From: a virus
Lineage: Duplodnaviria; Heunggongvirae; Uroviricota; Caudoviricetes
IMG/VR virus record: IMGVR_UViG_3300033489_000001
Coordinates: 286,023 to 350,022 of that record
Strand: one strand, 5' to 3'
DNA: 64,000 nucleotides
A program made the translations under genes and the position numbers. The notes beneath the pieces were generated by a model. It did not search any database, was not told the DNA's origin, and saw nothing but the letters and a program-made list of their open reading frames with translations. Below are positions 38,807 to 57,467 of this stretch, piece after piece (position 1 is the first letter of the stretch; each line of letters opens with the position of its first letter).

Positions 38807-38847
38807 TATACGGAGAAGGTTTTATGCCTTCTCCGTATAATTGAAAC
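38807..38847 (+). CRISPR. solitary CRISPR-like repeat A
   Basis: 13-bp stem TATACGGAGAAGG/CCTTCTCCGTATA followed by ATTGAAAC. Confidence 0.6.
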
Positions 38848-38866
38848 ACTGTGATATATGCATGAA

Positions 38867-39001
38867 TCCTTCTAAGATTTACAGCTCTTTGAAAAGATAT
38901 GCGGTTCTGAAAGAAAATCTTCTTTTGGATAAAATCTGAAAAGTAAGAGCTGTCAGGGAGAAGGTTTTACCTTCTCTGATAATTGAAATGATAATTGAAA
39001 T
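38867..39001 (+). CRISPR. leader plus solitary CRISPR-like repeat B with duplicated 3' end
   Basis: Repeat GTCAGGGAGAAGGTTTTACCTTCTCTGATAATTGAAAT (38952-38989) then GATAATTGAAAT; leader homologous to 57326-57421. Confidence 0.65.
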
Positions 39002-39100
39002 GTTGTCATCACCCGTCCGGTGATCATGAAGAACACCATCGCCGCAAAAAAACCAATGGGGAAGAATATAGGAATCAATTAGACCGGTTACTTCGTTCAT
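39002..39100 (-). pseudogene. truncated, frameshifted 5' paralog of membrane protein 38290..38775
   Basis: MNEVTGLIDSYILPHWFF/AAMVFFMITGRVM versus MDSLSDFINSDVLPHWPFFSALIFFMVTGQVM; ends at repeat B. Confidence 0.75.
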
Positions 39101-39118
39101 GATTTGGATACAGTTTCC

Positions 39119-39307
39119 TCAGAGAGTCTTTCCTAAGGTCCCACCTTCCCATGCACTTAGCTTATGCAACCGTTCTTTAAGTTGCTGCTTTTGTTCTTGA
39201 GACAGGTTGGGATCGGATAAGGTGGCCTTAATACGCTCCCGGACTAGTCTTGCCCCTTCTTTACGTAAGTCAGGGGATAAATTTAAATAGTTTTGCCTTA
39301 TGATCAT
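39119..39307 (-). CDS. small hypothetical protein
   Basis: GGAGAGG SD; helical. Confidence 0.6.
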   Translation of the reverse strand: MIIRQNYLNLSPDLRKEGARLVRERIKATLSDPNLSQEQKQQLKERLHKLSAWEGGTLGKTL

Positions 39308-39378
39308 AGTGAGCCTCTCCTAAAGAAAACTGTAAAAAGGATTCTCAGCCTAGTTGGAGTCTTGCCCTATTGAATTCT

Positions 39379-41088
39379 TCATTCCTGAGGTAACTCAAGC
39401 ATGAGATTAAATATGCTCTCTTGCGTTTGTTTGTCCTTTATCTTTGTCAAAACAAGATTTCGGTTTTTATCGTGTACAATATCAGATGGAATTTTTGCCT
39501 TTGCAAATGGTTGAGCATCAGGATTAAAAATGTCTTCAACGCGAAGTATTTGAACACGATCAAAAACCCGTCTATCCCCCTCCACCCCCGTAGTAAATGT
39601 CCCCTTAGCCTTAGCCGCCGCTATCATGCCCGGAGTAATATACCTATCCCAAGCCACAAAAAGTCCTACAACTGCATCAGCCTCGTCAACGCTATTACAA
39701 AAAGCGCGTACTGCCCCAATATCTGTGTACCCACCTTTTACTTGGATAACTCCGGGACGACTCTTTTTGTCTGCAAATCCAATAACTGTAATATCCCCGT
39801 CAATTCCCCCATCATGACTACTCTTTCTTGGGATTCCGTCAAAATAATTCACTACCCAACAAGAGAAGGGATAATGTTGCTCAGCCAACTTCTGAGCTTC
39901 CTCAATATCTGTCGGTATGAAACTTTCATCAATCCAACAACCTTCTCCAAAAGTAGCATCTAACCTTTCTTTCGCTTTTTGTGCTACTTTATGAGTCAGT
40001 TCCATACCTAACCATTTTCTATTCAACTTCTGAGCCGCTATGGCAGTAGTACCGCTCCCCAAAAATGGATCTAAAACAAGATCTCCTGGATTAGAGCTGG
40101 CTTTAATTATGAGTTCAAGTAAAGCTAGCGGCTTTTGCCCATCAAAAACCACACATTCTTTTGAGTTTGGTCGAACTTGAATAATATCAAGCCACACCCC
40201 TTGCATAACAACCCCCTTCTCGGGATCTTCGTCTACATAGCACTTATACATTGGATGCCCACGCATTAAAATAAAGCCTGCTTCATACGCTTGATCTAAC
40301 ATTTCTTGGGGGGTGCCCGTAAGTTCTTTCCCGGTAACTCTCTGATAATTCTCTTTAAGATTTCTGCTTATCATCCAACTGTAGCCTCTTCCGACCTCGG
40401 TTGGATCAATCCCTCTCCAAGGTAAGCTGCTAGGGCCATTACTGACTCCACGCCCCATTGGATCTGCCCATCTCCATTTACGTCCATCAGTATCAATCCC
40501 ATCCCAATGGTCTTTGTACTTCTGCGTTGCAGTATGATAAACTTTATTCCAAGTATAGTTATTACTCTTGGTATAAAGAAAAATCATATCGTGATCAGAA
40601 GGTATTCTTCGAGCGTTATTATGTGCTGAAGTCCTTTTCCAAATTACTTGGTTACGAAAATTTTCTTCCCCAAAGATTAAATCAAGAAACACTTTCAAGT
40701 AGTGACCCGCATGTTGGTCACAATGCAGCCACAAAGATCCTTTTGATGTTAGGACCCTCTTGCACTCCCATGCTCTAGGGACCATTTGGATGAGATAAGC
40801 AACCGTACCACAACGACCTTTTGCTTTATAGATGGCTGTCAAATATTCCGCTACAACATCAGCGCCAGGCGGTACATGCTCAATAAAATCTCTATACGTC
40901 TTCTCAGCCTTCTCCCCAAAATTCCAGGTGTCTTCGTAGGCCCACTCATGGGCCATACTTTCAACTACGGTAATATTGTAGTCTCTACCCGAGTTAAAGG
41001 GAGGATCTAAATAAATTAGATCCACGGAAGCATCAGGCATAGCTCTTAAAGATATGAGGTTGTCTCCGACTTTGATTTTTTCGGTCAT
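39379..41088 (-). CDS. N6/N4 DNA methyltransferase (beta class) fused to an Mrr-like restriction endonuclease domain
   Basis: YLDPPF, QKP..L, LDPFLGSGTT; C-terminal DGGIDG...IQVKGG. Confidence 0.9.
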   Translation of the reverse strand: MTEKIKVGDNLISLRAMPDASVDLIYLDPPFNSGRDYNITVVESMAHEWAYEDTWNFGEKAEKTYRDFIEHVPPGADVVAEYLTAIYKAKGRCGTVAYLIQMVPRAWECKRVLTSKGSLWLHCDQHAGHYLKVFLDLIFGEENFRNQVIWKRTSAHNNARRIPSDHDMIFLYTKSNNYTWNKVYHTATQKYKDHWDGIDTDGRKWRWADPMGRGVSNGPSSLPWRGIDPTEVGRGYSWMISRNLKENYQRVTGKELTGTPQEMLDQAYEAGFILMRGHPMYKCYVDEDPEKGVVMQGVWLDIIQVRPNSKECVVFDGQKPLALLELIIKASSNPGDLVLDPFLGSGTTAIAAQKLNRKWLGMELTHKVAQKAKERLDATFGEGCWIDESFIPTDIEEAQKLAEQHYPFSCWVVNYFDGIPRKSSHDGGIDGDITVIGFADKKSRPGVIQVKGGYTDIGAVRAFCNSVDEADAVVGLFVAWDRYITPGMIAAAKAKGTFTTGVEGDRRVFDRVQILRVEDIFNPDAQPFAKAKIPSDIVHDKNRNLVLTKIKDKQTQESIFNLMLELPQE

Positions 41089-41245
41089 AATTAGCCTTTC
41101 CAGAAAAGCTCAGTCGATAAGTGATTTAATTTGGAGACTTTCCTTTTTTATAAGCTTACGGATTGTCTCTAGTGGAGAAATGTGAAAGTGTTTAGAACAG
41201 GAACAATGGCGTTGTTCCTTTATGGTACTAATTACACCGAAAATA

Positions 41246-41518
41246 GCTTTGTCTGAAAGAAGTTCGATAATTCTTTTGTGGAAGGATTTCACACGCGGAT
41301 GTGATAGGAGCTATTAATTTGCTCAGACGTTCTGAGGATAAACAAATTAATGGCTATGATGATCCATCCGAGGTGAAAACTCTCTTGAGAGAGCGATTTC
41401 GTTTTAAACGAACCAGTTCCTTGAGAGGGTTAAACGAGCCTTATGGCTAGGCCGGAAGCTTACTACCAAGGGATCTCTTAAGAGACGTTGGCATAGCTTC
41501 AAATGCTAAAAACAAAGC
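41246..41518 (+). mobile_element. internally deleted derivative of the 21.8-23.3 kb tnpB element (left end + tnpB 3' end + omegaRNA)
   Basis: 41278-41527 is near-identical to 23050-23306; left part shares GATAATTCTTTT; GCTTTGT/ACAAAGC ends; flanked by CACCGAAAATA duplication. Confidence 0.85.
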
Positions 41519-41573
41519 CACCGAAAATAGGTGTAAGTATTCCTAGGAGTTTCCAAATAGAAAGAGTCCCTTC

Positions 41574-41786
41574 ATGCAAATCCCCATTAACGTCATTGGC
41601 TATGAAGAAACCAGGAAAATCGCTGTTACCTATGATAAAGTGACTGGTAACGCTCTTGATTCCAAGCCGGTTCCTGACAGTGAACAAGCCCACCTTGATT
41701 TAGAACTTCCGTCCGGGCACGTTATACGAGCTGAAGTCCCTTATATTGATTTTTTAAGGCACATTGCGCCATTGATTACAGAATAG
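41574..41786 (+). CDS. small hypothetical protein
   Basis: ORF downstream of a GGTGTA motif. Confidence 0.55.
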   Translation: MQIPINVIGYEETRKIAVTYDKVTGNALDSKPVPDSEQAHLDLELPSGHVIRAEVPYIDFLRHIAPLITE

Positions 41787-41926
41787 CTTGCTAGAAGTTG
41801 AGTCCCGAATAGCTACTTGATGGAGGTGTCCGTGGCTCCATTGATAAGCTTATCGGGGGCGGCGTAAGTTTTTTACCTACAAATCAACGCGATCCCTTTT
41901 GAAATCCTTGAATTTTTCCTCTCTCC

Positions 41927-41937
41927 GGTGTAGTAAT
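41927..41937 (+). promoter_or_regulatory. GGTGTA promoter-like motif (recurrent; see findings)
   Basis: GGTGTAGTAAT upstream of the SD and start of 41953; same hexamer precedes many gene starts. Confidence 0.55.
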
Positions 41938-41952
41938 AGATAAGGAGAGAAT

Positions 41953-44271
41953 ATGGAAAAATTCATTTTCATCATAACTTTAGTGATTCTTGGGGGTTGC
42001 GGAACGTCTAACCGTTTAGCTTCTCCTATAATAAATGAAGATGGAAGCACGCCGGACGAAGTTGTAACCGGTGACGCCTTTAATACATCAGATGGCGAAG
42101 TTTCCGAAGCGGCCGTCAACAAAGACGTAGAGGTTGTTGAAGCGGACCAGGATGCCGAGCCAAAAGATGCGGGCCAAGACTCAAGCTCCACGGATAGTCA
42201 AGTTTCTGACGCTGATGTAAAAGACGGCAGTCAAAATGTTGACAGCTCGGTCCAAGATTCAAGCTCCCTGGACGCTAATCAAGATTCAAGCTCCACGGAT
42301 GCTGGCCAAGACTCAACCACGCCGGACGCTAATCAAGATGCGGGTCAAGATGCCGCTCCAGTGTGCGTCCCGACCTGCTCGGGCCTTGTACCTCAGACTT
42401 GCAATGCTAACGGAAACCTCGTAAATGGCTCGCCTTGCCCTTATCTTTGTGCCGTTGGTTCTTGCATTGGCATTTGCACTCCTAATGATACTCAGTGCTC
42501 GGGCCTAAATTCGCAGACTTGTAACGCGGCCGGGCAATGGGTAACTAGCCAAACTTGCCCTTATACATGTTCGGGCGCTGGAGTTTGCAGTGGGAGTTGT
42601 GAAACCAATGCTACTCGATGTGACGGTAACAACTCTAAGACTTGTAACAGCTCGGGCCAATGGGAAACCACAGAAACTTGTCTTTACGTCTGTTCCGGGG
42701 CTGGAATTTGCTCAGGCTCATGTGTACCACAAACTACGCAATGCTCCGGTAATTACAATAATACCCCTCAGACGTGTGATGCTACCGGAAACTGGGTCTC
42801 AGGCACCACTTGTCCTTACGCTTGTATAAATGGGAGTTGTTACGGATCTTGTTTCTACGGAGCTACGCGCTGCTCGGGTAATGATTCTCAAACCTGTGGC
42901 TACGATATGCAATGGCATACCGATCATACATGCCCTTACGTTTGTAAAAATGGTGGGACTTGTTCCGGTAGTTGCGTTCCAGGGTCAAAACAGTGCAACG
43001 GAAACACCACTCAGACTTGTGACTCAACCGGTACTTGGCAGAATGTCTCAACTTGCCAGTTTATGTGCTCTAGCGGCTCTTGCACGGGCGTTTGCGTCCC
43101 CGGCAATACAATGTGCTCAGGGACTCAAATCCAGACTTGTAATGCCTCTGGGCAATGGAATACGGCTTCTAACTGTGCGGCGGTAGCCGGTGCCACTTCC
43201 TATTGCTCGAATGGGGCTTGTGAGTTCAACTGCAACCTCGATTACGATGACTGCGATGGCCTTCCCGGTAATGGTTGTGAGGTTAACCTAAATACGGACA
43301 AAGACAACTGCGGTCAATGCGAGCATAGTTGCTGCGGCGGGACTTGCGAGAATGGGAATTGTGGGATGTATGACACTGGGATTAATCCTGACAATACAGC
43401 CTATGATGTAGACTCAAACAACATTTACTGGTCTACGTCTACGGAACTCAACCAACGCCCACGTACCGGTGGTTCAACCACTGTGTTGGAAACAAATCAG
43501 CCTACAATCAAAGGTGTCACGGTGTCCGGGTCCAATGTGATTTGGAGTTGTGTAGGAACGAACCAAATCAATGGCGGCATCTTTTCTGAGCCAGTTGGCG
43601 GCGGAACGATGACCACTTATACTACGGAAGGTGACAAAGACTATATAACTGCTACAGCTAACGATATCTTCTATACGAGAGCCGACAAAGCAAGTGTTGA
43701 GTACGTTTCAAGGACGAGTAACTCTACGGGTGTGCTCCTTGGTAACACGCTTCCGGATGGCACTCCGGCTAACTTGACCTATGCCATTCCGTTTGTCTCG
43801 GACGGAACATACCTTTACACGAGTTATTCTAGCTATCCGACCGGCCAAAAGCCTATCGTGAAAGTTCCGGTGCATGGCGGCCAGATTACGACTTTTGCTA
43901 CTCCTACGACGCCGGGCTACTATCCTAATGGCCTCTCAATTGATAGCATCAATCTATACTATGTCCTTATCACTATCAATGGCTCAACAACTACTATGAC
44001 AGTTCAAAAACAACCTCTTGCCGGTGGCCCTGCTTCTTCCTTGACCCCGTCCAACTCGCAACTTGGAATATCTACAGCCACCGATGGAACTAATGTCTAC
44101 TATAGCACAAATAAGGCCATTCTAAAAGTTTCCACTAGTGGTAATACCCCTATTACGATTGCCACACTAAGCAGCACTACAACTATAAAAAACATCAAAG
44201 TCTCGAATCAATGTGTGTATTGGTATAACAGCTCGACCAGCACAATCCAAGCGGTAGCTGTCAATCCTTGA
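41953..44271 (+). CDS. myxobacterial-type lipoprotein: DAG-rich linker, Cys-rich repeats, C-terminal beta-propeller
   Basis: Lipobox ILGGC; ~7 repeats QTC...GxW...CPY.C; CDG...NGCE.NL.TD..NCG.C...C; VD..NIYW propeller blades. Confidence 0.85.
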   Translation: MEKFIFIITLVILGGCGTSNRLASPIINEDGSTPDEVVTGDAFNTSDGEVSEAAVNKDVEVVEADQDAEPKDAGQDSSSTDSQVSDADVKDGSQNVDSSVQDSSSLDANQDSSSTDAGQDSTTPDANQDAGQDAAPVCVPTCSGLVPQTCNANGNLVNGSPCPYLCAVGSCIGICTPNDTQCSGLNSQTCNAAGQWVTSQTCPYTCSGAGVCSGSCETNATRCDGNNSKTCNSSGQWETTETCLYVCSGAGICSGSCVPQTTQCSGNYNNTPQTCDATGNWVSGTTCPYACINGSCYGSCFYGATRCSGNDSQTCGYDMQWHTDHTCPYVCKNGGTCSGSCVPGSKQCNGNTTQTCDSTGTWQNVSTCQFMCSSGSCTGVCVPGNTMCSGTQIQTCNASGQWNTASNCAAVAGATSYCSNGACEFNCNLDYDDCDGLPGNGCEVNLNTDKDNCGQCEHSCCGGTCENGNCGMYDTGINPDNTAYDVDSNNIYWSTSTELNQRPRTGGSTTVLETNQPTIKGVTVSGSNVIWSCVGTNQINGGIFSEPVGGGTMTTYTTEGDKDYITATANDIFYTRADKASVEYVSRTSNSTGVLLGNTLPDGTPANLTYAIPFVSDGTYLYTSYSSYPTGQKPIVKVPVHGGQITTFATPTTPGYYPNGLSIDSINLYYVLITINGSTTTMTVQKQPLAGGPASSLTPSNSQLGISTATDGTNVYYSTNKAILKVSTSGNTPITIATLSSTTTIKNIKVSNQCVYWYNSSTSTIQAVAVNP
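44227..44271 (+). repeat. 45-bp direct repeat, copy 1 (3' end of the lipoprotein gene)
   Basis: NSSTSTIQAVAVNP-stop; 37/45 nt identical to 47751-47795. Confidence 0.85.
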
Positions 44272-45283
44272 CGTTAGGGACGCTAATTGAAAGCACATCG
44301 GGGATTTCAGCGAACTGTGGTATCTCTTGATCTAAGCGTTTCATGAAAACTTTCCAATTAGGTGCGTACTTCATAATCAACACTACTTTATCAAGATGAT
44401 GCCGCAGCCTTGATTGACCTGTGGTATCTGTTAGGCGCTGAAAAAGTCGATGTACTAAATTTCCTGATTCATCTCGAGGGGTCAGGCGACGAAGCTCAGC
44501 GAGGACTCCAGGTGCTAGCCGTTTGTAAACAATATTATTGGTCCAATGACCTATTACTTGTGGTTTCCCGTTTGAGGAATCGTTGTATTCCCAATTGTTT
44601 AAACGATAAATTTGCTGATAGAACTCCGGAGGAAATGTTCTAATCCAAGGGCGAAGTTCTTTAGCCACAAACGCCTCCAAAATTACAGTAAGTTCGTCAC
44701 GAGGTCGAAATTTTTGATAACCTGTGGCCTCATCAACTAAAGCAATAATGCCAACCGTAGCAAAACCATGTTGTAGTATCCGGCATCGTTCGGCAAGATG
44801 CTTTTGTTGGGATGCTAGCTTGCCCCTCATTCCCGCCTCGATAATGACATTACATATATCGGGGAGTATTGTTGCTTCATACCCATAAGCAATCTGCCCA
44901 TGAGGCGGAATAAATCTAATGGGAGAATCGCCGCGCGAATCTAAGTCTTTGATATCTATTCCTTTTTTACTCAAACGACCCATTAAAGTGACAACTCTCC
45001 GCGCACCCTTTTCACCACCACTGGTTGAAAGCCCAATCCCTACCTGAAGCCCTCTTTGAGAAAGCACTCGACGACCGTCCTCAAGGACATAGCAGGGGAT
45101 CTCAATAGTCCCTATGCGTAGGGGTCGATCAGGGGCTCCATATTTTGCTATCGCAGGGGGTTCCTTACCACTCCCAACCCATCGAGTTAGAGCGGCTTTG
45201 CTGGCAATTTCTGCTCGTCTCTCTGGTGTGAGATTACGGGCACGAGCTAAACCTCCAGATGATTTTTCAGCTATTGTAGGCAT
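44261..45283 (-). CDS. P63C domain protein (phage antirepressor-like)
   Basis: GG.ARA..LTPERR.EIA.KAA..RW; IPCYVLEDGRRVLSQRG; IIALVDEATGYQ; W..TFP.EFY. Confidence 0.9.
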   Translation of the reverse strand: MPTIAEKSSGGLARARNLTPERRAEIASKAALTRWVGSGKEPPAIAKYGAPDRPLRIGTIEIPCYVLEDGRRVLSQRGLQVGIGLSTSGGEKGARRVVTLMGRLSKKGIDIKDLDSRGDSPIRFIPPHGQIAYGYEATILPDICNVIIEAGMRGKLASQQKHLAERCRILQHGFATVGIIALVDEATGYQKFRPRDELTVILEAFVAKELRPWIRTFPPEFYQQIYRLNNWEYNDSSNGKPQVIGHWTNNIVYKRLAPGVLAELRRLTPRDESGNLVHRLFQRLTDTTGQSRLRHHLDKVVLIMKYAPNWKVFMKRLDQEIPQFAEIPDVLSISVPNVKD

Positions 45284-45383
45284 ATATTCTCCTCCTTAGT
45301 TGTAGAGAAAACATGTATACAACATGCTTTGAGAGAAGGCAACAAAAAAAATGCTTACTTTGAGGGAAAGCAAGATAAATTAT

Positions 45384-45411
45384 TTGACAGATACCTTTCT
45401 GATGGTAAAAT
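45384..45411 (+). promoter_or_regulatory. sigma70-like promoter
   Basis: TTGACA-16 nt-TAAAAT with TG extension, 8 nt before ATG 45420. Confidence 0.65.
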
Positions 45412-45419
45412 GAGGTAAA

Positions 45420-45629
45420 ATGAAAGACTTCCCGCTTGAACAATGGTTTGATTTAACTAAGAAAATCAGTAAAGACGATGTAACTGACTGCTTATCTCAA
45501 ATGATGCTTTATGCTTACAAAGATGGTTCAAAGCTTAAGGGTAAAGAATGGCAAGAGACTAAAAGAGAATTACGTCAAGCAGTCAAGATCCATAACTGTT
45601 CTTTGTACCTTAAAAATCATAACTCATGA
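45420..45629 (+). CDS. small hypothetical protein
   Basis: Promoter upstream; ATGA overlap with the next gene. Confidence 0.6.
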   Translation: MKDFPLEQWFDLTKKISKDDVTDCLSQMMLYAYKDGSKLKGKEWQETKRELRQAVKIHNCSLYLKNHNS

Positions 45630-46207
45630 AACAACCCAACAAACTTACGGCTCAACAAGTGGCTGAACGCTTCCAAAAACAAGCCATGCCCACAATCTTC
45701 TACCGGCTTACGGAAGAGATTTGCTGGGGGTTCTTTTCAGATGAACATCAACGAATGCATCTTCAAACCGTAGACTTAGAACATAAGACCAACAAGACCA
45801 AGATCCATGTATGGCTTGAAAATCTAGGCACACGCATATTTGAAGTTGCTCAATGCCCGAACGATCCTAAGTGCAAACAAGCGGTAAAAGACCTTCGGCA
45901 TAAACTCACTACAGAACGAGATGAAGTTGAAATTAAATGGACCGATCTAATGATCGAAAAGAACTGGATCAAAGCTGATTTACAAGGGAACCTTGTAGTA
46001 GTTACAGCCTACCCAAGGAGCAATACTAAGTTCACACGAACCGTGGACTTATGGCAAGAAGCTCCGGGCATGATGACGGACATAAAGCCAGGTGATCTCA
46101 AACAAAAAAATGTAAAGATTAAACGAGATATGGGGTCTTTGTCTGTGAGCGCTCTAGGTAGAGAGTTTGTAGATATCCGTTTAGATCATTTACTGTGGAT
46201 AGACTAA
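45626..46207 (+). CDS. tagged DUF4160-like protein with C-terminal extension
   Basis: QQVAERFQKQA then MPTIF...WGFFSDEHQRMHLQ...KIHVWL...W. Confidence 0.6.
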   Translation: MKQPNKLTAQQVAERFQKQAMPTIFYRLTEEICWGFFSDEHQRMHLQTVDLEHKTNKTKIHVWLENLGTRIFEVAQCPNDPKCKQAVKDLRHKLTTERDEVEIKWTDLMIEKNWIKADLQGNLVVVTAYPRSNTKFTRTVDLWQEAPGMMTDIKPGDLKQKNVKIKRDMGSLSVSALGREFVDIRLDHLLWID

Positions 46208-47369: not shown

Positions 47370-47372
47370 AAA

Positions 47373-48833: not shown

Positions 48834-48900
48834 AGATGCCTCTTACACCAGCAAACATAGAAAAAGATCCTCTCGGTATTCATTCCGTGTACTCGACCGG

Positions 48901-49080
48901 TGAAAAGAACTAGAGGGAGGTTTTAGCTCCCTCTAGAAAATACCAAGGAGAGTTGACCCCCATCGTAGTCCAGTTTCAATTACAGAGGGATTTTTTTAGC
49001 TCCCTCTAGCCTTGCGAATTTGTCGTGCATTAGCATCGCCGTAGTGTTTCAATTACAGAAGGAGTTCTAGTTCCCTCTAC
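48901..49080 (-). CRISPR. CRISPR mini-array: 3 repeats, 2 spacers of 36 nt, no cas genes nearby
   Basis: Repeats 49046-49080 and 48973-49009 (minus strand ...CTGTAATTGAAAC) and a degenerate trailer ending 48936; spacers 49010-49045 and 48937-48972. Confidence 0.85.
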
Positions 49081-49128
49081 AGAGAGCTTACTTTTTAATT
49101 GCAACAACGGCAACAACTTAAATGATGA

Positions 49129-50111: not shown

Positions 50112-50112
50112 T

Positions 50113-53100
50113 TTAGCTTCTCTTAGACAACGTAATAGTTGAAGGATCAATAGTTAGGCGAACGTTGTTTCTAACAAGTGGGTGGCCCTCTATTCTAGCT
50201 AGATCAGCGGCAGAGTAACCTTCATTCTTTCCGTTCGTCCCTATGGCTATATCCCCTGGAATCGGGGTTCCAACGGTAGGACGAACTACGTTGGTTATGA
50301 CTAGCATCATCAACTCATCCCCCGCAGAGACTTCAGTAGCGCCTACATTCGTTGGAGCGTTTCTAACAAGCATGGCTCTACCCATTAGAACGTTGGTGTG
50401 ATTATCAGAAGGTAGAAGGGACTGGCCTTGAAGTGAAATTTCGCCGCCTGGATGGGGTCCATTTCCAACAAAAACAGAACCGCCTCTGTTCACTCTGAAA
50501 TTAGTTAGAAGTGAGTAATTTCCTTGTTCACCATCAACATGAACAAGCACGTCTCCAGGGGAAACAACACCAGAGGATGCCGTGTCCAAAGGCATCTCAT
50601 CTTGTTCCATGTGGTTGACAGCTAAGCCCGTGGAATGGCCTGCCGCAACGTCGTTTGAAAACACTAACGGCGATTGAGTGATCCCAAATAGTTGACCTTT
50701 AAGATCTGAATCGCGAAAAAGTGCTCCCAAGGGAAGGACATCGCTTCCATGATATTCTGTTCCAATATCCGTTAGATTATAAGAGGAGAAAGTGTTTGGC
50801 AAAGACAACGGACGATCATCGTAACTATGAGCGGGCGGATAATTAGTTGGGTCCGCGAAAGCTACGTCCATAAAATGTAGTGGAGAAATAGAACCATCAC
50901 CCGCAAACCGACCAGTGCCTAATGTAGTTGCGAAAGAAGTAGAGGCTAAAACCTCTACCACTTTTTGGTTAGGTCGAGTAAGTGCAGCTTGATTCAATTG
51001 CGTATGAGAAAGTTGATATGCATCGCCGGATAGAAGAGGACCGGGTTTATAACCAGTATCTGCGTAGGATGTCTGTGAGCCCCAAGCATCGCCTTGATAC
51101 GAACTACGACTATGATTAATTACTACCTGGTCAGAGGATTGAGCCGGGCCGGGAAGAACAGCGGAAGGACCGGCTACGTACTTGTTGATGTTGTTATGAC
51201 GCCCGGTAATGGAAGTTTGATCTACCGGGCCGCCTTTAACCGATGACCAACTGTTTGAAAGAACACCCGATGGTTGCGTCATTACCAATCGGGCTTCTGA
51301 GTTAAGGTCAAACGTTCCACGATCAAAACCGAAGATAGAAGCTTCAATCACATAATTTCCTGACGCAAAAGAAGCTATTGGATTTGGAGAACGAGCAATA
51401 TCAATAGCATTTGCGTTTAGAATAAATGTGGAGTCCCCATCATCATCAATTTCTATCCACATAACTGGACCGTCTGATTGAGTCATGTTCTGGCGCAAGA
51501 GATTCGTGGCCCCTCCAGTAATAGGTGCTCTTGTACCTGCATCAAAAGCTGACCCTCCGTTTGGACCGGATGTAGTAAAGTAATTGGTAGCTTCATATAC
51601 AGCGAATAAACGAGCAACTCCGTAGAAAGGTGGTAATTCTAACCCTTGTCGGCCAAGACTTCTGGTGTCCGTGAAGAAACGCATCCCTGCATAATTATTA
51701 CTGTATATTGTTAGGGCCGCATTGTAAATCGCCGGTAGTGCCGTGGTGGGATCTATAGTTGTAAAAGCCGCGTAGGTACGAACCGAGCTTGGATTGTAAT
51801 TTACATAATTCTTGTCAGCGTCTCCGTAACTACTCCCACTTTTACTATCGGTAACAAAATTGATGCCTTGTGAAAAGACGGAACCAACGTCATTGGGTAG
51901 AATAGGAAGACGCAATTCGCCCCAACCGGGCACTAGATGGCGTGGAAGACTTACGTAGATACTACTATAAGCATCATTAGAAGCAGTTGTGCCACAGAAT
52001 AAACCCAGAGGATCGGTGGTTGTCCATTTAGCAGTAGTGCCATCTCGTTCATTAAGGGGCATCACACCCTGTGCTTGGTGTACCGCAAAAGTGACCGAAG
52101 TACTACCTTTAGCCTTAATCGGACGATCAACAGTAATTGAGGTAGAAGGTGTGATGCCAATAACAGTGTATCGACCAGCTCCAGGACCACTGGTAATAAC
52201 TACAGCGTCTCGTAATGCCGTAGTCCCTACACTCCCCACCGTTATAACAGGGGAGTTATCTGTACCTATAGTACCCGTCGTGGGGGCTCCAGCCTTAACC
52301 GCCGTGTAGGGATTAGCTGCCATCCCATCTATAGTAAGTAAACCGATTCCTGCATCATTGGGGAAATTGATTCTACGGAAAGGCGTCAATATGATAGATT
52401 TACTTCCGAGATCCGCATAAACCTCAGAGGTTACTGGGAGTAAATTATTAAAAGCGGCGCTTCTAAATTTGCTCCACAAAGGAGCCCAACTCACTCGTGA
52501 ACCTTGGTTGCTAGAAGGAATCCCTGATTGTTGGACAAGTAACTCGGCTGAAGGATTGATATAAGAAACTGAGTGAAGTGAATTCGGCCGCCTTGATAAC
52601 CCACGCCCCGCCCCATAAACTGCATGAAGTGTGATGTGAAGGATAGTTGGGGTCGCAGTCAAAGAGGTTTGCGTTGGGAAAGTGCCGCCGAAAGTAATGA
52701 CCAAATCATCTGATGGGGTTGGAACCGCCGGAGTCACTGTATACATTGTGGGAGGGATGGGGTCGGTCTCCCCGTCAAACCTAAGACTTACCGCACCAAC
52801 CACACTATCATTTAACCACCTTACTTGGTCAGTATCGCCTCCAGGAAGTCCATGCTGCAAATTCGAAACTGGGACGGAAATCACGTCACCACTTGCAAAG
52901 ACATCCCCAGTCACTTGGTTCGTCGTCTTAACCGTGAACCCTAAGCTCCATCCCACATTTATATCAGCCGTCCCCGGAGGGGTAACTGTAGAGCCATGTG
53001 GTTTTACAATGCACTCAATTGGCTGCACCACAGCGGCATCAGAGAACACCATACGGATGTTGTCAGGAGCGTCAAGCTTAGTCACCCCAAGGGCTACGGC

Positions 53101-54480
53101 GGACGCCGTGATGGCGTCTTGATAGATCACATAGGGGCCTTGAGGACCGGCTCCTGAGCGCTTCCAGTTAGCCCTTAGCTGCCCTTTTAGAAGCTTGTCT
53201 AGATTGCCCTTGAGAAGGGCATCGTAGTCAAAACCGTTAGGATTGACTACATGTCGCAAATCTAAGATGTCTGTCAAGGCAATCTGATCGGAGAAAAGCC
53301 CGTCAGGACGCCCTGACATGACCTTGACTATTGATCCTGCTTTGTGAAGCTCAGCCCTGGTTCCGTTTTGACCTCGAGCAGCAATGTTGAGAGTTGAGCC
53401 CGTGATTGATGAATAGGTCATCAACTCATCACCGATCTGAATTAGAACGGGAGTGGCCGGGTTGACCGGTAAGGGGATGTTAGCCACGGAAGTTAGCGCT
53501 ATGGACGTGGCCGAAGCGGACATGTCAGCAGCGAGAGTTGGAACTGTAGAAAAAGTCGCAATCCCCGTGCGATCTACAGCGGTGGGATTGCGATTGAACC
53601 CTCCGTTGAGATTCTGAGACGGAGATCCATTCCACGAAACGGAATTGCGGCGGAAAATAGCGGCAATGGGAATGGCGTAAACATAGCCATCAACCGTGCC
53701 AAGAGCGTTTTGAGTCCCATCTCCTGCCCGCCATAAGCCCGCATCACCGAGCACCTGTCTCATATTTGTGAAAGTGTAAGAAGTTGGAGCAGTGGCAGCG
53801 CCTTGAGCTTTAACAACTACGGGATCAAAACCGTCAGGATTTGAAGTCAAGCCTATCAAACCCTTTACAACACGTATCCGGTATTGAATTTGGGTGCGTT
53901 GACTTGTCTCAAAGCCTATAGCCGGATCGATCAAATCATCAGAAAGGAAGGCGAAGCCACCTTCAACGTTACCTAATTTCCAAATGCCGCTAGCCGCTGG
54001 CTTATTTGTGGTTGAAGGGTTAGGTTGAATTCGAGCTTTCCACACTTCAAGATAAGCAAAGTCGATTCTGAAATCTCCACTGGCCGAAGGCGGTGGATCT
54101 AGCGCAACAACGTTGGTTGTCTCGGTTGAAGGCGTGCCCGGCGGATTACCCGTTCTTGTCCCCGCAACGGGTATAAGATTTCCACCCACGTTTGCAAAAA
54201 CCACTGAGTTTTGCTCGCCCGTACGATGAGGACCGAACTTGAAATAGTTAGAATATGAGGGGTCAGTGGCGAAGATAGCTTGAAGGTTCGTCTCATTACC
54301 AAGCCATCCCGAAGGCATTCCTCGAAGGTTCGCCGATTTAATGGCACCAGCAGCGATACTATCCTTTAGATTCAATTCAGCATCGCATAACGGCTTCCCC
54401 TCTTCCGAAATTATATTCTCGAATTGGGTGCTTGTAGCATCAAGGACTCGTGATACCTCAGTACCAAAATATTCGCTCAT
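50113..54480 (-). CDS. large virion structural (baseplate/tail-associated) protein
   Basis: 1455 aa, G/T/S/P-rich; N-terminal ~450 aa paralogous to 60578..63166 (GKP..D.EL, LEVW, QYR.RV, GLW.AGDG...LGTVDGY, RPDGLF.D). Confidence 0.75.
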   Translation of the reverse strand: MSEYFGTEVSRVLDATSTQFENIISEEGKPLCDAELNLKDSIAAGAIKSANLRGMPSGWLGNETNLQAIFATDPSYSNYFKFGPHRTGEQNSVVFANVGGNLIPVAGTRTGNPPGTPSTETTNVVALDPPPSASGDFRIDFAYLEVWKARIQPNPSTTNKPAASGIWKLGNVEGGFAFLSDDLIDPAIGFETSQRTQIQYRIRVVKGLIGLTSNPDGFDPVVVKAQGAATAPTSYTFTNMRQVLGDAGLWRAGDGTQNALGTVDGYVYAIPIAAIFRRNSVSWNGSPSQNLNGGFNRNPTAVDRTGIATFSTVPTLAADMSASATSIALTSVANIPLPVNPATPVLIQIGDELMTYSSITGSTLNIAARGQNGTRAELHKAGSIVKVMSGRPDGLFSDQIALTDILDLRHVVNPNGFDYDALLKGNLDKLLKGQLRANWKRSGAGPQGPYVIYQDAITASAVALGVTKLDAPDNIRMVFSDAAVVQPIECIVKPHGSTVTPPGTADINVGWSLGFTVKTTNQVTGDVFASGDVISVPVSNLQHGLPGGDTDQVRWLNDSVVGAVSLRFDGETDPIPPTMYTVTPAVPTPSDDLVITFGGTFPTQTSLTATPTILHITLHAVYGAGRGLSRRPNSLHSVSYINPSAELLVQQSGIPSSNQGSRVSWAPLWSKFRSAAFNNLLPVTSEVYADLGSKSIILTPFRRINFPNDAGIGLLTIDGMAANPYTAVKAGAPTTGTIGTDNSPVITVGSVGTTALRDAVVITSGPGAGRYTVIGITPSTSITVDRPIKAKGSTSVTFAVHQAQGVMPLNERDGTTAKWTTTDPLGLFCGTTASNDAYSSIYVSLPRHLVPGWGELRLPILPNDVGSVFSQGINFVTDSKSGSSYGDADKNYVNYNPSSVRTYAAFTTIDPTTALPAIYNAALTIYSNNYAGMRFFTDTRSLGRQGLELPPFYGVARLFAVYEATNYFTTSGPNGGSAFDAGTRAPITGGATNLLRQNMTQSDGPVMWIEIDDDGDSTFILNANAIDIARSPNPIASFASGNYVIEASIFGFDRGTFDLNSEARLVMTQPSGVLSNSWSSVKGGPVDQTSITGRHNNINKYVAGPSAVLPGPAQSSDQVVINHSRSSYQGDAWGSQTSYADTGYKPGPLLSGDAYQLSHTQLNQAALTRPNQKVVEVLASTSFATTLGTGRFAGDGSISPLHFMDVAFADPTNYPPAHSYDDRPLSLPNTFSSYNLTDIGTEYHGSDVLPLGALFRDSDLKGQLFGITQSPLVFSNDVAAGHSTGLAVNHMEQDEMPLDTASSGVVSPGDVLVHVDGEQGNYSLLTNFRVNRGGSVFVGNGPHPGGEISLQGQSLLPSDNHTNVLMGRAMLVRNAPTNVGATEVSAGDELMMLVITNVVRPTVGTPIPGDIAIGTNGKNEGYSAADLARIEGHPLVRNNVRLTIDPSTITLSKRS

Positions 54481-54621
54481 GGTGTCTTCCTCTGATTTAA
54501 TTCAAGGGGCACAATAACCCATCAAAAGGGAAAGTTTATAGAGAGATCCGCGATTTCAAGATTTACACCAAATCTAGCTATTTTGACATCCGAAAAACAC
54601 CATTAACGGTCAATCTCTATT

Positions 54622-54760
54622 GGCATTCGGGACTCAACTTACTAAACTTTCATTCAACAAGTTAAGATTTTGTTCCGATTCTTGCTTCATAGAAGACAGC
54701 CTACTACCACGCCTTGGCCCCTTCGGGGCTTCGGTCTTCTCATGAAGTCATACGTGCATA
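54622..54760 (-). ncRNA. orphan omegaRNA-like / IS607-type right-end relic
   Basis: Stem CTTCATGAGAAGAC...GTCTTCTATGAAG, then GCAAGAA...AAAGTTTAGTAAGTT; resembles the ATGAAGCAGGAA tail at 58.16 kb. Confidence 0.5.
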
Positions 54761-54784
54761 AGGGAGGATTTACAGTTGACGGAA

Positions 54785-55516
54785 CTAATCAGAAATCTTG
54801 AATAAATTCAGATTGAAGTTCTTTACTGTATAATCTGTTGTGTCTGTACTATTCTTACCCGATATCCATAGCCGCTTTCCAACCGTTACAGTAATCAATC
54901 CACCGGCGGACATGGCCGCTAGAGTATTCGTACTATTGCGTTCTGTGACAATATTATCTGTGGGCGTAATTCCGATATTCAACTCCCACTTCCAATCCTT
55001 GTTAACATTTGCCGCTGTACCGTCAATTGTAAACCTTGCAACGTAAATCCCTGCTGCGGTTGAACCGGCTTGTAGATAGGCCGGAGCATAAACCACGCCA
55101 GCGGATGCTCCAGCTCCCGCAACATAAGTCACATCATCGCAGGAGAATTTGGTGGTATCCACATAGGTTACACGAGTAGCTTTATTGTGCCCCGCATTAT
55201 TCATATTAGCGAGCGTTACGATATCTCCAGTGACAAGTCCATGTACTGCCGAACACTCAACTTCAAGAAGACCCCCTACGTTTGCTTCATTAGTTATATC
55301 GGCGTCAACAATCCGTCCAGCGTTAAAAGTCCAATCAAGTAATAAACCTGCTACTATATCGCTAGCAGTACGCAACCCAAAGGCATGGTATACCCCTGCC
55401 GTAACGATGTTGAAAGCTATAGCTTTGTTGTACGCATACATCTCGCCGTAAGCTGGTTTAAGCTTAGAAAATGCGATGCTGGTATCTACTATGCTCTTAG
55501 CTGCCAACTTAGTCAT
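54785..55516 (-). CDS. virion structural protein
   Basis: HGLVTGDIVT (FCCH-like) motif plus beta-rich C-terminus; structural context. Confidence 0.6.
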   Translation of the reverse strand: MTKLAAKSIVDTSIAFSKLKPAYGEMYAYNKAIAFNIVTAGVYHAFGLRTASDIVAGLLLDWTFNAGRIVDADITNEANVGGLLEVECSAVHGLVTGDIVTLANMNNAGHNKATRVTYVDTTKFSCDDVTYVAGAGASAGVVYAPAYLQAGSTAAGIYVARFTIDGTAANVNKDWKWELNIGITPTDNIVTERNSTNTLAAMSAGGLITVTVGKRLWISGKNSTDTTDYTVKNFNLNLFKISD

Positions 55517-55543
55517 CGTTTTATCTTTCCTGAGATCTAAATA

Positions 55544-56317
55544 TTACTTGTAATAGTCGATGATCAGAATATCATCCTCAGCAATTTCTTCTGATAGACC
55601 CGTAGCTACTACGTTAGCGATATGCACGCGATCAAAGTTAGGAGTGATTACATCAAAATCAGGAGTCGCGCCGGTAGCACCAACGCACTGTTTATTTACT
55701 TGCCGAAAGCCTCCAACTACAGTAACCGCTACAGATTGAGCATTAACTGAGGATGCGCTCAATGTAAAATATCCGGCAGTCACCTCTCCAGACGTGACTT
55801 TATGCATCTCTTGGACGTAATCAGAGATGGTTGTGAATTTATCCATCGTGAGATCATCAGTCCCAATGATTCCCGATCCGGTGTTATTTTTACAGTTCCA
55901 CCCGGTATCAGCGTCAGTTCCACGCTCGATAAAAACGACTGCACCGGCAAAGTCCATACCCACGGCCGCGTCATCCGTTCTAACCATTGGAACGGCGGCA
56001 CCTTTCCAAAGGTAAATACCATCTTGCGTTGCTGTGCCTTGCAGGTCACATAAGACACGCTCATCAAGCACCATTGTCTCACCGTCGATAGTCGCTCCAG
56101 GAGCGGCTATTGTGACGCTGGCTTGCGCTCGAACTTGAACAGGAGTTTTCCACTTCCCCGCATCGAGATCAGTTTTTCGCACTGGCTGATCTGGATCGGT
56201 GGGAGCAGCGACTTCAATAGTACAAGCTGAAAAATCATAATCTTGACCTGAAGCAACATTCAGCTTTGCAGCATCAATAGTAGAATCAGAAACGTATTTA
56301 CCATTCAGTTTTGACAT
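55544..56317 (-). CDS. virion structural/fiber protein
   Basis: WKTPVQV...IDG...ERVL...Q..ATQDGIY...R.DDA....FIERGT, a phage fiber domain pattern. Confidence 0.7.
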   Translation of the reverse strand: MSKLNGKYVSDSTIDAAKLNVASGQDYDFSACTIEVAAPTDPDQPVRKTDLDAGKWKTPVQVRAQASVTIAAPGATIDGETMVLDERVLCDLQGTATQDGIYLWKGAAVPMVRTDDAAVGMDFAGAVVFIERGTDADTGWNCKNNTGSGIIGTDDLTMDKFTTISDYVQEMHKVTSGEVTAGYFTLSASSVNAQSVAVTVVGGFRQVNKQCVGATGATPDFDVITPNFDRVHIANVVATGLSEEIAEDDILIIDYYK

Positions 56318-56335
56318 TTTAGTTCATTCCTCTCC

Positions 56336-56815
56336 CTAACAAATCACTTGAACAACATCCCCATCTTCCAAAAGTATGTACAAATCAGTCACAGAAGGAT
56401 TACTTCCCCCACTAAAACTCCCTCCGCCTGGAGCAGTACTCATAGGGTCAATACAGACATAATACCCTGGAGCTGAACCTCCAGTTACAGAACGAATCGT
56501 AAAATCTATTCCATATTGTTGTAGTATTCCGTCAATCGGATGTAAAAGAACGTTAGATAGTGTTAGAGTAGGAATAGTAAGGGGACCTATTACTCCATTT
56601 ATAGTATCTGTATATGTGTACTGTCTAACGCTTAAACCACCGTAAGGGGTTTGCCAGGCATAAGCAGTTGGACTGGTAGCCGTAGGCACTTGACCTACTG
56701 TGGGAGGGGCTGCCGCTGCACCTGAAACCGGGGCTCCGGTAGTAGCCAACTCTACAGCGCCCGTTTGGCCGGGTGCCTGTGGAATTGAACTAAATTGATT
56801 GTAGCGTGTTCCCAT
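56336..56815 (-). CDS. putative structural protein
   Basis: IDGILQ.YG.DF...L..GD.VQV pattern; context. Confidence 0.55.
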   Translation of the reverse strand: MGTRYNQFSSIPQAPGQTGAVELATTGAPVSGAAAAPPTVGQVPTATSPTAYAWQTPYGGLSVRQYTYTDTINGVIGPLTIPTLTLSNVLLHPIDGILQQYGIDFTIRSVTGGSAPGYYVCIDPMSTAPGGGSFSGGSNPSVTDLYILLEDGDVVQVIC

Positions 56816-56817
56816 CT

Positions 56818-57204
56818 TTATTGCTTTTGCACTTTCATAAGGGAGAGGCTTTCTAAGTTCCCACGGTCAACTCTAACTATCTCAAACTTTGAAGCTTGCA
56901 GACCTTCCCTAAGAACTTTGTGAGCTTCTTCAGGAATCCCTGAGCCACACGTATAAAAATCCACAGCAGCATACCCGTGCTCCGGCCAGGTATGAATAGA
57001 GAGATGGGACTCTTCAATAACTACGACTCCACTTACGCCCTGGGGATTAAAAGGATGAAAAACAGACGCAACGATGCGAGTTCTAGCTGCTAAGGCAGCT
57101 TTCTCCATCAGCTCTTTTATTTGAGCCATATCGTCAAGTGTGGCTTGATTGCACCCTATATACTCGACCAAGAGATGTTTGCCGTGCGTGTTCAATTTCC
57201 ACAA
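56818..57204 (-). CDS. speD: S-adenosylmethionine decarboxylase proenzyme
   Basis: GKHLLVE, F.PQGVSGVVVIEESHLSIHTWPE.GYAAVDFYTCG. Confidence 0.93.
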   Translation of the reverse strand: MWKLNTHGKHLLVEYIGCNQATLDDMAQIKELMEKAALAARTRIVASVFHPFNPQGVSGVVVIEESHLSIHTWPEHGYAAVDFYTCGSGIPEEAHKVLREGLQASKFEIVRVDRGNLESLSLMKVQKQ

Positions 57205-57325
57205 AATCTCCTATAAGTAATGTCTATCGGTGGTTCAGATCCCATCTTCTTTAGCATTATAAAATCTTGGCTCTTTATTTTAAATTTGCGTTTAGTGAAT
57301 TTTTGGGTTAATTTATTGTAGCAAG

Positions 57326-57467
57326 TCCTTTTTAAGGTTTTGAATTCTTTGAGAAAAGGTAAGCGGTTCTAAGAGATAGTCTTCTTTTAGGTAAAACCTG
57401 AAAAGCAAAAGGATTGACTGCCTAGGGAGGACTCTAAGTTCCTCCTGTAATTGAAACTAATTGAAAC
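57326..57467 (+). CRISPR. leader plus solitary CRISPR-like repeat with duplicated 3' end
   Basis: CTAGGGAGGACTCTAAGTTCCTCCTGTAATTGAAAC (57422-57457) then TAATTGAAAC; leader 57363-57408 is 38/46 identical to 38901-38946. Confidence 0.7.

Follow-up and report, generated by a model that had tools for sequence, protein, structure and literature searches.

The window, the 64,000-nucleotide stretch of DNA analyzed here, is part of a 411,618-bp phage genome and contains three solitary repeats and one short array. The three solitary repeats listed in the original prediction were found as 37-nt units on the plus strand at positions 38811-38847 (W38807), 38953-38989 (W38952) and 57421-57457 (W57422), each consisting of a hairpin followed by a handle that ends in AATTGAAAC or AATTGAAAT. 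W38807 combines a 12-bp hairpin with the handle ATAATTGAAAC (covariance-model E-value 0.0028, dG -19.9 kcal/mol, z -8.3). It is not preceded by the conserved upstream segment described below and is flanked by an 11-nt direct repeat on the same strand. The upstream copy (ACTGTAATATA, 38800-38810) differs from the first 11 nt past the handle (ACTGTGATATA, 38848-38858) only at position 6, and the downstream copy doubles as the start of the would-be guide of W38807. The hairpin of W38952 occupies positions 38957-38977 and is followed by the handle GATAATTGAAAT at 38978-38989 (E-value 2.4e-4) and by an exact 12-nt tandem copy of this handle at 38990-39001. W57422 is built in the same way, with its hairpin at 57425-57446, the handle GTAATTGAAAC at 57447-57457 (E-value 2.6e-4) and an exact 10-nt tandem copy, TAATTGAAAC, at 57458-57467, the final base of which lies inside the stop codon of a convergent gene. 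The tandem handle copies are thus exact as originally described, with GATAATTGAAAT present twice within 38978-39001 and TAATTGAAAC twice within 57448-57467. The predicted mini-array is likewise present on the minus strand at 48900-49082 and comprises three repeats (49046-49082, 48973-49009 and a degenerate terminal repeat at 48900-48936) and two 36-nt spacers (49010-49045 and 48937-48972). The leader-end motif AAAAGTAAG directly precedes its first repeat, as had been claimed. The motif TAATTGAAAY occurs 7 times in the window compared with 0.71 expected occurrences, a count reached in none of 100 shuffles. No Rfam family was found at gathering score across the whole window, and the snoRNA and miRNA matches that appeared at both window cassettes under relaxed E-values, the only ones to do so, were judged to be chance. 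The window contains no tRNA genes, and its 38-46 kb region has no match among 50,697 phage records.

The window units are true CRISPR-type repeats and belong to one family with the repeats of the phage's cas-adjacent array. The units had been assumed to occur without cas genes, which is wrong: the phage has a type I-C variant operon that encodes Cas5c, Cas8c and Cas7 and, instead of Cas3, a helicase. Cas7 (Pfam, 3.2e-48), Cas8c (9.9e-32) and Cas5c (NCBIfam TIGR01876, 7.3e-20; D. vulgaris Cas5c, PDB 7KHA chain A, 6.9e-16 over residues 29-220) are present. The helicase is named only 'DNA helicase' in PHROGs, and a PDB sequence search with the helicase and the adjoining 256-amino acid protein returned no match. 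No Cas1, Cas2 or Cas4 was found in the phage. The main array adjoins the cas operon at genome positions 189,027-193,628, 130 kb upstream of the window, and holds about 63 repeats which are heterogeneous with covarying stems, the first five being identical. No protospacers for its spacers were identified in known phages or in the two relatives G001 and G002 (best E-value 0.09).

Genome-wide, 11 solitary units share the architecture of this family, in which a hairpin precedes an 11-nt 3' handle with ATTGAAAC or ATTGAAAT at its end. In an alignment of 73 units (60 main-array repeats, 11 solitary units and two mini-array repeats) A29, A30, T31, T32, A35 and A36 are present in all units and G33 and A34 in at least 90%. 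AATTGAAA is invariant across the dispersed units, and two handle variants, GTAATTGAAAC and GATAATTGAAAY, exist in the family. The stems diverge and remain pairable, as the original prediction stated, with 6-12 bp, dG values of -5.9 to -19.9 kcal/mol and z-scores of -1.8 to -8.3 across all dispersed units. Stem cells are paired in 88.4% of cases, and 77 are altered on both sides compared with 32 in shuffles, a number reached in 0 of 500 shuffles. The handle strand folds better than the opposite strand in 12 of 12 dispersed units, each of which contains one or more G-U pairs. All 11 solitary units retain an intact hairpin and handle despite the strong divergence of the stems. A covariance model built from the aligned repeat units recovers exactly those units, with E-values of 1.7e-5 to 2.8e-3 for the units in the window. 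Our preferred explanation is that the solitary units are orphan members of the repeat family that serves the phage's type I-C-variant CRISPR system.

A conserved upstream segment precedes four of the solitary repeats genome-wide, two of them in the window. The claimed homology between positions 38901-38946 and 57363-57408 was reproduced (38 of 46 positions identical; next best ungapped window match 26 of 46), and a repeat search extends the match to 59 nt at 81%. Homology between the four cassettes spans about 56-118 nt, starts at or near a closing stem (P1), never continues beyond the handle and is not shared by the flanks. The segment preceding W38952 (38881-38953, plus strand) is predicted to fold into P1 (ACAGCUCUU/AAGAGCUGU), a second stem P2 (AGAU/AUCU) and a hairpin P3, and carries two GAAAAG motifs. 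The corresponding segment of W57422 (57343-57415, plus strand) has P1 (AAUUCUUU/AAAGGAUU) and P2 (AGGU/ACCU), both with compensatory changes relative to W38952, and again a P3 hairpin. P3 contains several G-U pairs. The covariation of P1 and P2 is seen among four sequences of a single genome. This segment had been taken for an array leader, which does not agree with its distribution: it is absent from the main array, the mini-array and the arrays of G002 and is found solely before solitary repeats, with exactly one repeat following in all four or five leader-type copies. Compared with the G002 array leaders, the segment shows no significant similarity, and a profile of those leaders finds its best match in the main-array leader of the present phage. 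Only the final 9-12 nt before the repeat (AAAAGTAAG) are shared with the true leaders of the mini-array and main array. We read the conserved segment of about 70 nt as probably being part of a folded RNA and not an array leader. An IMG/VR pattern search with the segment gave 0 matches, and no sigma-70 promoter is conserved upstream of the cassettes or common to both window leaders.

The cassettes are oriented against the surrounding genes. The predicted antisense orientation holds; it is not a special trait of the cassettes, as at least 8 of the 11 solitary units oppose the local gene block. All four leader cassettes are located just beyond the 3' end of a convergent transcription unit. The 'holin-like pseudogene' that had been described opposite W38952 (a 73-amino acid ORF at 38879-39100) is probably spurious, and it 'matches' the other three cassettes because the antisense strand of the cassette encodes its C-terminal half. 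At W57422 the handle copy does abut a stop codon as stated, the C at 57467 being the last base of the stop of a minus-strand gene at 57467-58093, which encodes a 208-amino acid protein conserved in a clade of huge phages. The next gene is an S-adenosylmethionine (AdoMet) decarboxylase gene (56818-57204, minus strand), and the 262 nt between the two genes contain the W57422 cassette and a minus-strand sigma-70-like promoter. In five relatives the AdoMet decarboxylase gene directly follows the homologue of the 208-amino acid gene. A DNA methylase gene is found among the cassette neighbors. Read from the sequence, tRNA genes adjoin the solitary unit S218k elsewhere in the genome.

Among the phages examined, the repeat family was found only in array-bearing ones. 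Of 16 related records it occurs in the two that carry such arrays, G000 and G002, and the other 14, huge phage records that lack arrays of the family, contain no solitary repeats of it save for one marginal match. The units are therefore tied to the phage's own CRISPR system. At the junction homologous to 57.4 kb, an array of 13 repeats with the same orientation is present in G002; it abuts the stop codon of the 57467-58093 homologue and has another leader type. Six other relatives have no CRISPR unit there. This shared junction may be due to chance (p about 0.2 by our own estimate, given some 500 intergenic sites and about 13 and 9 units). Neither G001 nor G002 yielded a Cas7, the G002 record being 68% complete and starting within an array, and Cas7 used as bait in IMG/VR identified no relative. 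Searches of IMG/VR and 185,579 genomes with a 16-mer from the repeat end gave, among the matches listed, only single chance ones without a hairpin. Likewise, no host array with the same repeat end was present among the listed matches from the 185,579 genomes and from metagenomes, which were single chance ones or coding tandem repeats.

The duplicated handle, originally put forward as an unexplained trait of the leader-linked units, is also present at five places in the main array and at one in a related phage. It is best explained as a recurrent tandem-duplication scar of the repeat family that also arises in ordinary arrays. We propose that the duplication is tolerated since it is the spacer-adjacent copy that serves as the working handle. 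In IMG/VR the two-handle pattern was found, besides G002, only in tandem repeats of coding sequence with a period of 66, 75 or 81 nt, and in metagenomes it retrieved one irrelevant 30-nt tandem repeat. As a natural experiment, the recurrent duplication could show which 5' end Cas5c and Cascade select for a type I-C guide.

One short spacer of the main array matches the predicted promoter of cas5c, which lies at genome positions 200,675-200,703. Positions 1-19 of this 26-nt spacer match a site between the predicted -35 and -10 elements, with the sole mismatch at position 12, a non-pairing position, and with TTA as flanking motif. Type I-C CRISPR RNA-like RNAs (crlRNAs) from solitary repeat units are reported to use TTA and TTC motifs (bioRxiv 10.1101/2024.12.27.630466), and the spacer agrees with the pairing described for such RNAs (at least 11-16 bp, promoter location, TTC/TTA). 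Judged from this match, the phage system appears to use partial-match guides. The idea of self-regulatory guides thus gains indirect support from the main array. For W38952 and W57422 themselves no convincing target was found: in either handle register, the phage genome contained no plausibly flanked site for the guides past these two units. A resemblance between the first 11 nt of the W57422 guide and the core of a 16-copy palindrome (ATCTTTATAAATAAAGAT) is probably chance (10 effective nt, motif CTT, about 2 random matches expected). Positions 1-13 of the would-be W38807 guide match a site just upstream of its own hairpin with mismatches only at 6 and 12, giving 11 effective pairs. This self-match, flanked by TCT, can equally be explained as a target-site duplication. 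The guide of S218k matches a site 250 nt upstream at 14 of 15 effective positions with the motif TTT, and the mismatch is at seed position 3. On visual inspection, the sequences downstream of the four cassettes showed no consistent 3' hairpin about 37-39 nt past the handle of the kind described for Neisseria crlRNAs.

Taken together, the orphan repeats look like hard-wired small CRISPR RNAs rather than ordinary arrays or plain decoys. We tentatively favor the interpretation that the solitary units are independent crRNA-like RNAs which Cas5c processes and which act together with the phage's own Cascade. Each unit would be a small independent transcription unit, mostly opposing the surrounding genes, and in the four leader cassettes the repeat would be fused to the conserved folded RNA segment of about 70 nt. 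The phage Cas5c would bind the hairpin and cut at its 3' base, which would yield an upstream RNA capped by the repeat hairpin and a downstream RNA starting with the 11-nt handle. The nuclease-less Cascade could take up the latter as a fixed guide that does not stem from acquisition, and this guide would act as a crlRNA, so that DNA is bound and not cut and a regulatory effect may follow. That conservation ends at the handle suits a repeat-terminated product at least as well as a downstream guide. A bolder version, which we regard as speculative and rather improbable, holds that the unit of about 118 nt is a new CRISPR-linked small-RNA gene spreading within huge phage genomes. Its handle-tagged read-through RNA would supply the nuclease-less Cascade with hard-wired guides, either for control of phage or host genes or for marking unoccupied sites in rival genomes, and in the same circuit autoregulation would come from the spacer that matches the cas5c promoter.

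The CRISPR-type frame of the original prediction stands without its assumption of cas-less units, and the empty arrays and decoys that it offered stay as lower-rated rivals. Spacer-less arrays, which we consider somewhat unlikely, would have collapsed to one repeat by recombination or would be platforms that a host Cas1-Cas2 could fill in trans, with no RNA function of their own. Acquisition in trans is plausible since the phage has no Cas1, Cas2 or Cas4 and the first main-array repeats are nevertheless identical, as with recent polar growth. The 13-repeat array of G002 at the same junction and in the same orientation, the lack of a unit there in six other relatives and the array-like last 9-12 nt before the repeat (AAAAGTAAG) also fit, as do deletion scars in the arrays of these phages, for example a partial repeat in G002. 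However, the 60-70-nt segment heads no filled array in the genomes examined and is unrelated to array leaders, every one of its four or five copies is followed by exactly one repeat, and the intact hairpin and handle of 11 of 11 units are unlike decaying relics. The junction shared with G002 may moreover be coincidental at the estimated p of about 0.2, and the leader type there differs. Decoys resembling RNA anti-CRISPRs (Racrs) would be abundant repeat RNAs, stabilized by the folded 5' segment, that tie up Cas5c and Cas7 of a type I-C system of the host or a rival phage. Solitary phage repeats can act as Racrs, including the type I-C RacrIC1 (PMC10651486), the units are multi-copy and dispersed with a DNA methylase gene among their neighbors, and conservation covers exactly the folded segment, repeat and handle and nothing downstream, which fits a repeat-containing product. 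We nonetheless judge decoys to be unlikely. The Racr analogy is weakened because Racrs are defined for cas-less elements while the phage has its own cas operon and large array, and its cognate Cas proteins would bind the decoys too. The absence of solitary repeats from the 14 relatives without arrays of the repeat family (one marginal match) would be odd for host-directed counter-defense, and the listed repeat-end matches, single chance ones only, included no host array.

Two further explanations were considered. The cassette could be a small mobile CRISPR-linked element whose read-through guide equals the flanking DNA and hence an unoccupied site elsewhere, making it a selfish or homing-like device. 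This would agree with a homologous unit of up to about 118 nt with sharp borders at four unrelated locations, with the empty state of the 57.4-kb junction in five relatives and with the 10/11 direct repeat around W38807, by which its guide would match the reconstructed empty site next to a TCT motif. We regard such an element as quite improbable: of the 11 units only one has flanking direct repeats, the 57.2-57.5 kb insertion measures 262 nt or about twice the cassette, TCT differs from TTA, TTC and TTT, and the cassettes are linked to neither a transposase nor any other mobility function. It is very improbable that the hairpins are opposite-strand terminators or 3'-end stabilizers of the convergent genes with an incidental likeness to CRISPR repeats. 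The location of all four leader cassettes just past a convergent 3' end and T-rich sequence some distance past the hairpins on the opposite strand, as read from the sequence, would suit this function, but no terminator-like site is called at the hairpins on either strand. Better folding of the handle strand in 12 of 12 units, with G-U pairs turning into A-C mismatches on the other strand, and an invariant AATTGAAA that would be superfluous for a terminator argue against it as well.

Huge phages often carry CRISPR systems that have neither acquisition genes nor a nuclease, and the present genome gives a tangible entry point to their purpose: a large array with an embedded guide matching a promoter of the same system, fixed single-repeat units under RNA-level selection and four such units fused to a folded segment. 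If the units yield Cascade-bound guides, CRISPR would serve this phage as a programmable repressor and not as immunity. If they are decoys, one phage would combine a CRISPR system with a same-type RNA anti-CRISPR.

The phage system resembles the huge-phage systems reported in 2020 (PMC7162821) in its set of Cas5c, Cas8c, Cas7 and a helicase, with no recognizable Cas3 signature and no Cas1, Cas2 or Cas4, in a huge phage genome. Its array of about 63 repeats compares with a median of 6 reported there, and heterogeneous repeats with covarying stems together with 11 dispersed solitary units are not described in the main-text parts searched. Like a minimal, spacer-acquiring CRISPR locus made of a leader and one repeat, the cassettes place a single repeat after an A-rich junction motif common to true arrays; unlike in such a locus, their upstream segment heads no filled array and the phage has no adaptation genes. 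With viral solitary repeat units and Racrs (RacrIF1, RacrIC1; Camara-Wilpert et al. 2023, PMC10651486) they share an intergenic viral location, probable expression as small RNAs and a preserved Cas-binding hairpin. Racr elements are however cas-less and mimic host repeats, whereas the phage units match the phage's own array and Cas proteins and are absent from relatives without arrays of the repeat family. Type I-C crlRNAs from solitary repeat units repress promoters of Nezha, Gabija and other defense genes (bioRxiv 10.1101/2024.12.27.630466), and they likewise consist of a lone intergenic repeat (hairpin and 11-nt handle) in a genome encoding Cas5c, Cas8c and Cas7. In contrast to crlRNAs and CreR, the present units belong to a phage with a Cascade without Cas3. 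They further differ from crlRNAs in the conserved folded segment of about 70 nt that precedes the repeat in the four cassettes, in having no promoter target found for W38952 and W57422 and in showing no consistent 3' hairpin. The short phage spacer that matches the predicted cas5c promoter over 19 nt next to TTA has the geometry known from crlRNA regulators and CreR/CreA-type regulatory mini-arrays, and this one clear regulatory guide of the phage sits, unlike crlRNAs, within the main array and not at a solitary unit.

The solitary repeats belong, as orphans, to the type I-C-variant CRISPR system that the phage itself encodes, and RNA-level selection keeps them intact. All elements named in the original prediction lie where it placed them: three plus-strand solitary units (W38807, W38952 and W57422, at window positions 38811-38847, 38953-38989 and 57421-57457), a minus-strand mini-array (48900-49082, three repeats and two spacers), a common upstream segment and two tandem copies of the handle, the 3' end of the repeat after the hairpin. 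A covariance-model scan of the whole genome, as had been proposed, was run with a model of the repeat family built from 73 units. Outside the main array, it found the mini-array and 11 solitary units, three in the window and eight elsewhere (genome 139,046; 140,758; 143,341; 154,079; 164,197; 165,298; 202,158; 218,441). Despite wide divergence of the stems, 88% of their cells still pair, and double-sided changes are far more numerous than in shuffled controls. In the alignment of units, the handle part AATTGAAA is essentially invariant. A minus-strand hairpin about 3.3 kb before the window (genome 282,733-282,772; CCACAAGAG…CTCCTTGTGG, then TAATTGAAAA) looks like one more solitary unit in degenerate form and is absent from the listed covariance-model matches.

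The window corresponds to bases 286,023-350,022 of a 411,618-bp virus record, which has direct terminal repeats and carries a minus-strand cas operon about 130 kb upstream of the window. The operon encodes Cas5c, Cas8c, Cas7, a 771-aa helicase with ResIII/DEAD matches and no Cas3 family match, and a 256-aa protein with no assigned function; no Cas1, Cas2 or Cas4 was detectable in the phage. It is followed by the main array (genome 189,027-193,628), which comprises about 63 repeats of the same family as the solitary units. Given this operon and the same-family array in one phage, the solitary units cannot be called Cas-less. The main array is very heterogeneous: it has many stem variants, which carry compensatory changes, its period ranges from 55 to 90 nt, and its spacers fall into two length groups, 31-32 and 36-37 nt. 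Repeats 1-5 are identical to one another. No protospacers of the main-array spacers were found.

Four copies of the conserved upstream segment are present, two in the window (38.9 kb, 57.4 kb) and two outside it (genome 138,969, 218,546), with a weak fifth copy at genome 202.2 kb. The segment always lies directly 5' of a solitary repeat, together forming a cassette, and never precedes the main array or the mini-array. The segments of W38952 and W57422 are identical at 38 of 46 positions (best chance value elsewhere in the window, 26/46), and a repeat search of the window extends this similarity to 59 nt at 81%. Pairs of cassettes are homologous over 56-118 nt, the closest pair at 85% over 118 nt; homology starts at or near P1, the closing stem of the predicted fold, and never passes the handle, and neither flank is common to the cassettes. 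One predicted fold is common to three copies, lying only 1.6 kcal/mol above the optimum in W57422 and including a 9-bp hairpin with several G-U pairs. Double-sided changes occur in P1 (CAGCUCUU/AAGAGCUG in W38952 versus AAUUCUUU/AAAGGAUU in W57422) and in a 4-bp stem (AGAU/AUCU versus AGGU/ACCU). These compensatory changes come from four sequences of one genome and are no more than suggestive of a segment that would fold as RNA. Likeness to true array-leader ends is limited to the 9-12 nt that adjoin the repeat (AAAAGTAAG), and no sigma-70 promoter common to the segments was found. The handle motif TAATTGAAAY occurs seven times in the window against 0.71 expected. A 73-aa minus-strand ORF at window 38879-39100 is most likely no gene; its C-terminal half is the cassette at that site read antisense, hence its apparent matches to the other three cassettes. 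The solitary repeats at genome 164,197 and 165,298 (9197-9233 and 10298-10334 in stretch L012), 1.1 kb apart, are both preceded by a conserved region of another kind, at least 150 nt long, with a CTCTTGAC motif and a CTCCTTGAAAAA motif, the latter like that of the four cassettes; their similarity also ends at the handle.

The handle duplication, originally left unexplained, is a family trait, with five cases in the main array (period +11 nt, spacer length within the normal range) and one in array B of the related phage G002 (TAATTGAAAC twice). Of the two copies in a main-array duplication, the one nearer the hairpin is degenerate, with a final T, and the one nearer the spacer is canonical, with a final C, which indicates that the latter is under selection. 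The duplicated length varies between 10, 11 and 12 nt, which suggests a sloppy mutational process such as slippage beside the hairpin rather than a precise enzymatic step. Both duplications in the window are exact and therefore recent.

A 208-aa gene (window 57467..58093, minus strand) abuts W57422 and is a marker of a huge-phage clade. Direct reading of five relatives, the complete 398-kb genome G001 among them, showed an AdoMet decarboxylase gene immediately after it and no repeat. The insertion thus appears to have introduced or generated a new promoter; between cassette and decarboxylase gene, sigma-70-like promoters TTTAAA-17-TATAAT and TTCAAA-18-TACAAT with TG lie on the minus strand (window 57256-57344). 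In G002 (323 kb, 68% complete, 57% G+C) the same junction is occupied by an array of 13 same-family repeats, likewise convergent. This shared junction is weak evidence for empty and filled alleles, with a probability of about 0.2 by chance (own estimate), and none of the remaining G002 CRISPR loci coincides with one of this phage. G002 carries four arrays with a common leader of about 200 nt, and five solitary units. Its array leader does not match the cassette segment. Despite its earlier name, that segment, which precedes neither array here, is not an array leader. The best match of a G002 leader profile lies just upstream of this phage's main array; its E-value of 0.63 is weak alone, but it falls within a target of 200 nt out of the 823 kb searched. 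Scars in G002 arrays (120,214-121,201; 65,263-65,310) comprise a partial repeat lacking the 5' arm, a duplicated spacer in array B and a 10-nt handle duplication, and an inverted pair of solitary repeats surrounds a partial leader at 285,970-286,166. Thirteen further related records contain no repeat of this family save one marginal match.

Our tentative reading is that the units are independent crRNA-like RNAs processed by Cas5c, and that the transcript includes the conserved segment. That they represent spacer-less arrays is rather unlikely. Solitary units are confined to the two array-bearing genomes among the 16 examined. This distribution links them to the CRISPR system of the phage itself and speaks against a general decoy aimed at hosts. 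A Racr-type function is unlikely, and a mobile cassette guiding against its own empty site is a distinctly unlikely reading. In 12 of 12 dispersed units the handle strand folds better than the opposite strand, each with at least one G-U pair, placing the constraint on RNA of the handle strand rather than on a terminator serving convergent genes. Nor was any terminator-like site called at the hairpins; opposite-strand terminators are highly improbable.

At least eight of the 11 solitary units are oriented against the local gene block, and each of the four cassettes points towards a convergent unit's 3' end. This orientation fits selection against Cas5c cleavage sites within the phage's own mRNAs and also independent transcription of the units. 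The cassette at genome 218,441 faces apparent tRNA genes, read from the plus strand of genome 218,100-218,400 (3' ends …GGTTCAAATCC…CCA); a minus-strand ORF called there is probably spurious.

For crRNA-like RNAs, targets were sought across the whole phage genome as seed-type matches, with every sixth position ignored and 78 queries. The clear match belongs to a 26-nt main-array spacer (genome 190,838-190,863, downstream of the repeat at 864-900 in stretch L010), not to a solitary unit. Its positions 1-19 match genome 200,681-200,699, between the predicted -35 (TTTACA) and -10 upstream of cas5c, with a single mismatch at position 12 and the flanking motif TTA. About 0.4 matches of that strength are expected genome-wide for the 78 queries and about 2e-4 within 100 bp of the cas-operon start (own estimate). 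The arrangement resembles autoregulation of the cas operon by a guide embedded in the array. A sibling spacer of 27 nt follows the repeat at genome 191,730, 0.9 kb away, and shares the odd flanking repeat of the first. In W38807, the first 13 nt past the handle match the sequence immediately preceding the hairpin of that unit, except at positions 6 and 12, with TCT as flanking motif; an 11-bp flanking duplication would explain this match equally well. For the unit at genome 218,441, a site 250 nt upstream, close to where a divergent gene starts, agrees at 14 of the 15 effective positions, with TTT as flanking motif and the mismatch at seed position 3. The search gave no credible target for W38952 and W57422 in the whole phage genome, and the W57422 flank resembles a palindrome present in 16 copies, probably by chance. 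This 18-bp palindrome, ATCTTTATAAATAAAGAT (genome 138,208-153,301 and 107,419), is always intergenic, often paired, and lies in a region of small genes and four solitary repeats; a phage regulator probably uses it as an operator or promoter element. In both mini-array spacers (window 48937-49045) and one main-array spacer (genome 193,195-193,230), GACTACG or ACTACGGCG occurs close to the 5' end, which would fit their being directed at one conserved target motif.

Solitary repeats of type I-C have been reported as sources of crRNA-like RNAs of 48-50 nt, which repress promoters with a flanking TTC or TTA (bioRxiv 10.1101/2024.12.27.630466). In huge phages, Al-Shayeb et al. (PMC7162821) described a type I-C variant in which a helicase replaces Cas3 and Cas1 and Cas2 are missing; the cas operon of this phage is that variant.
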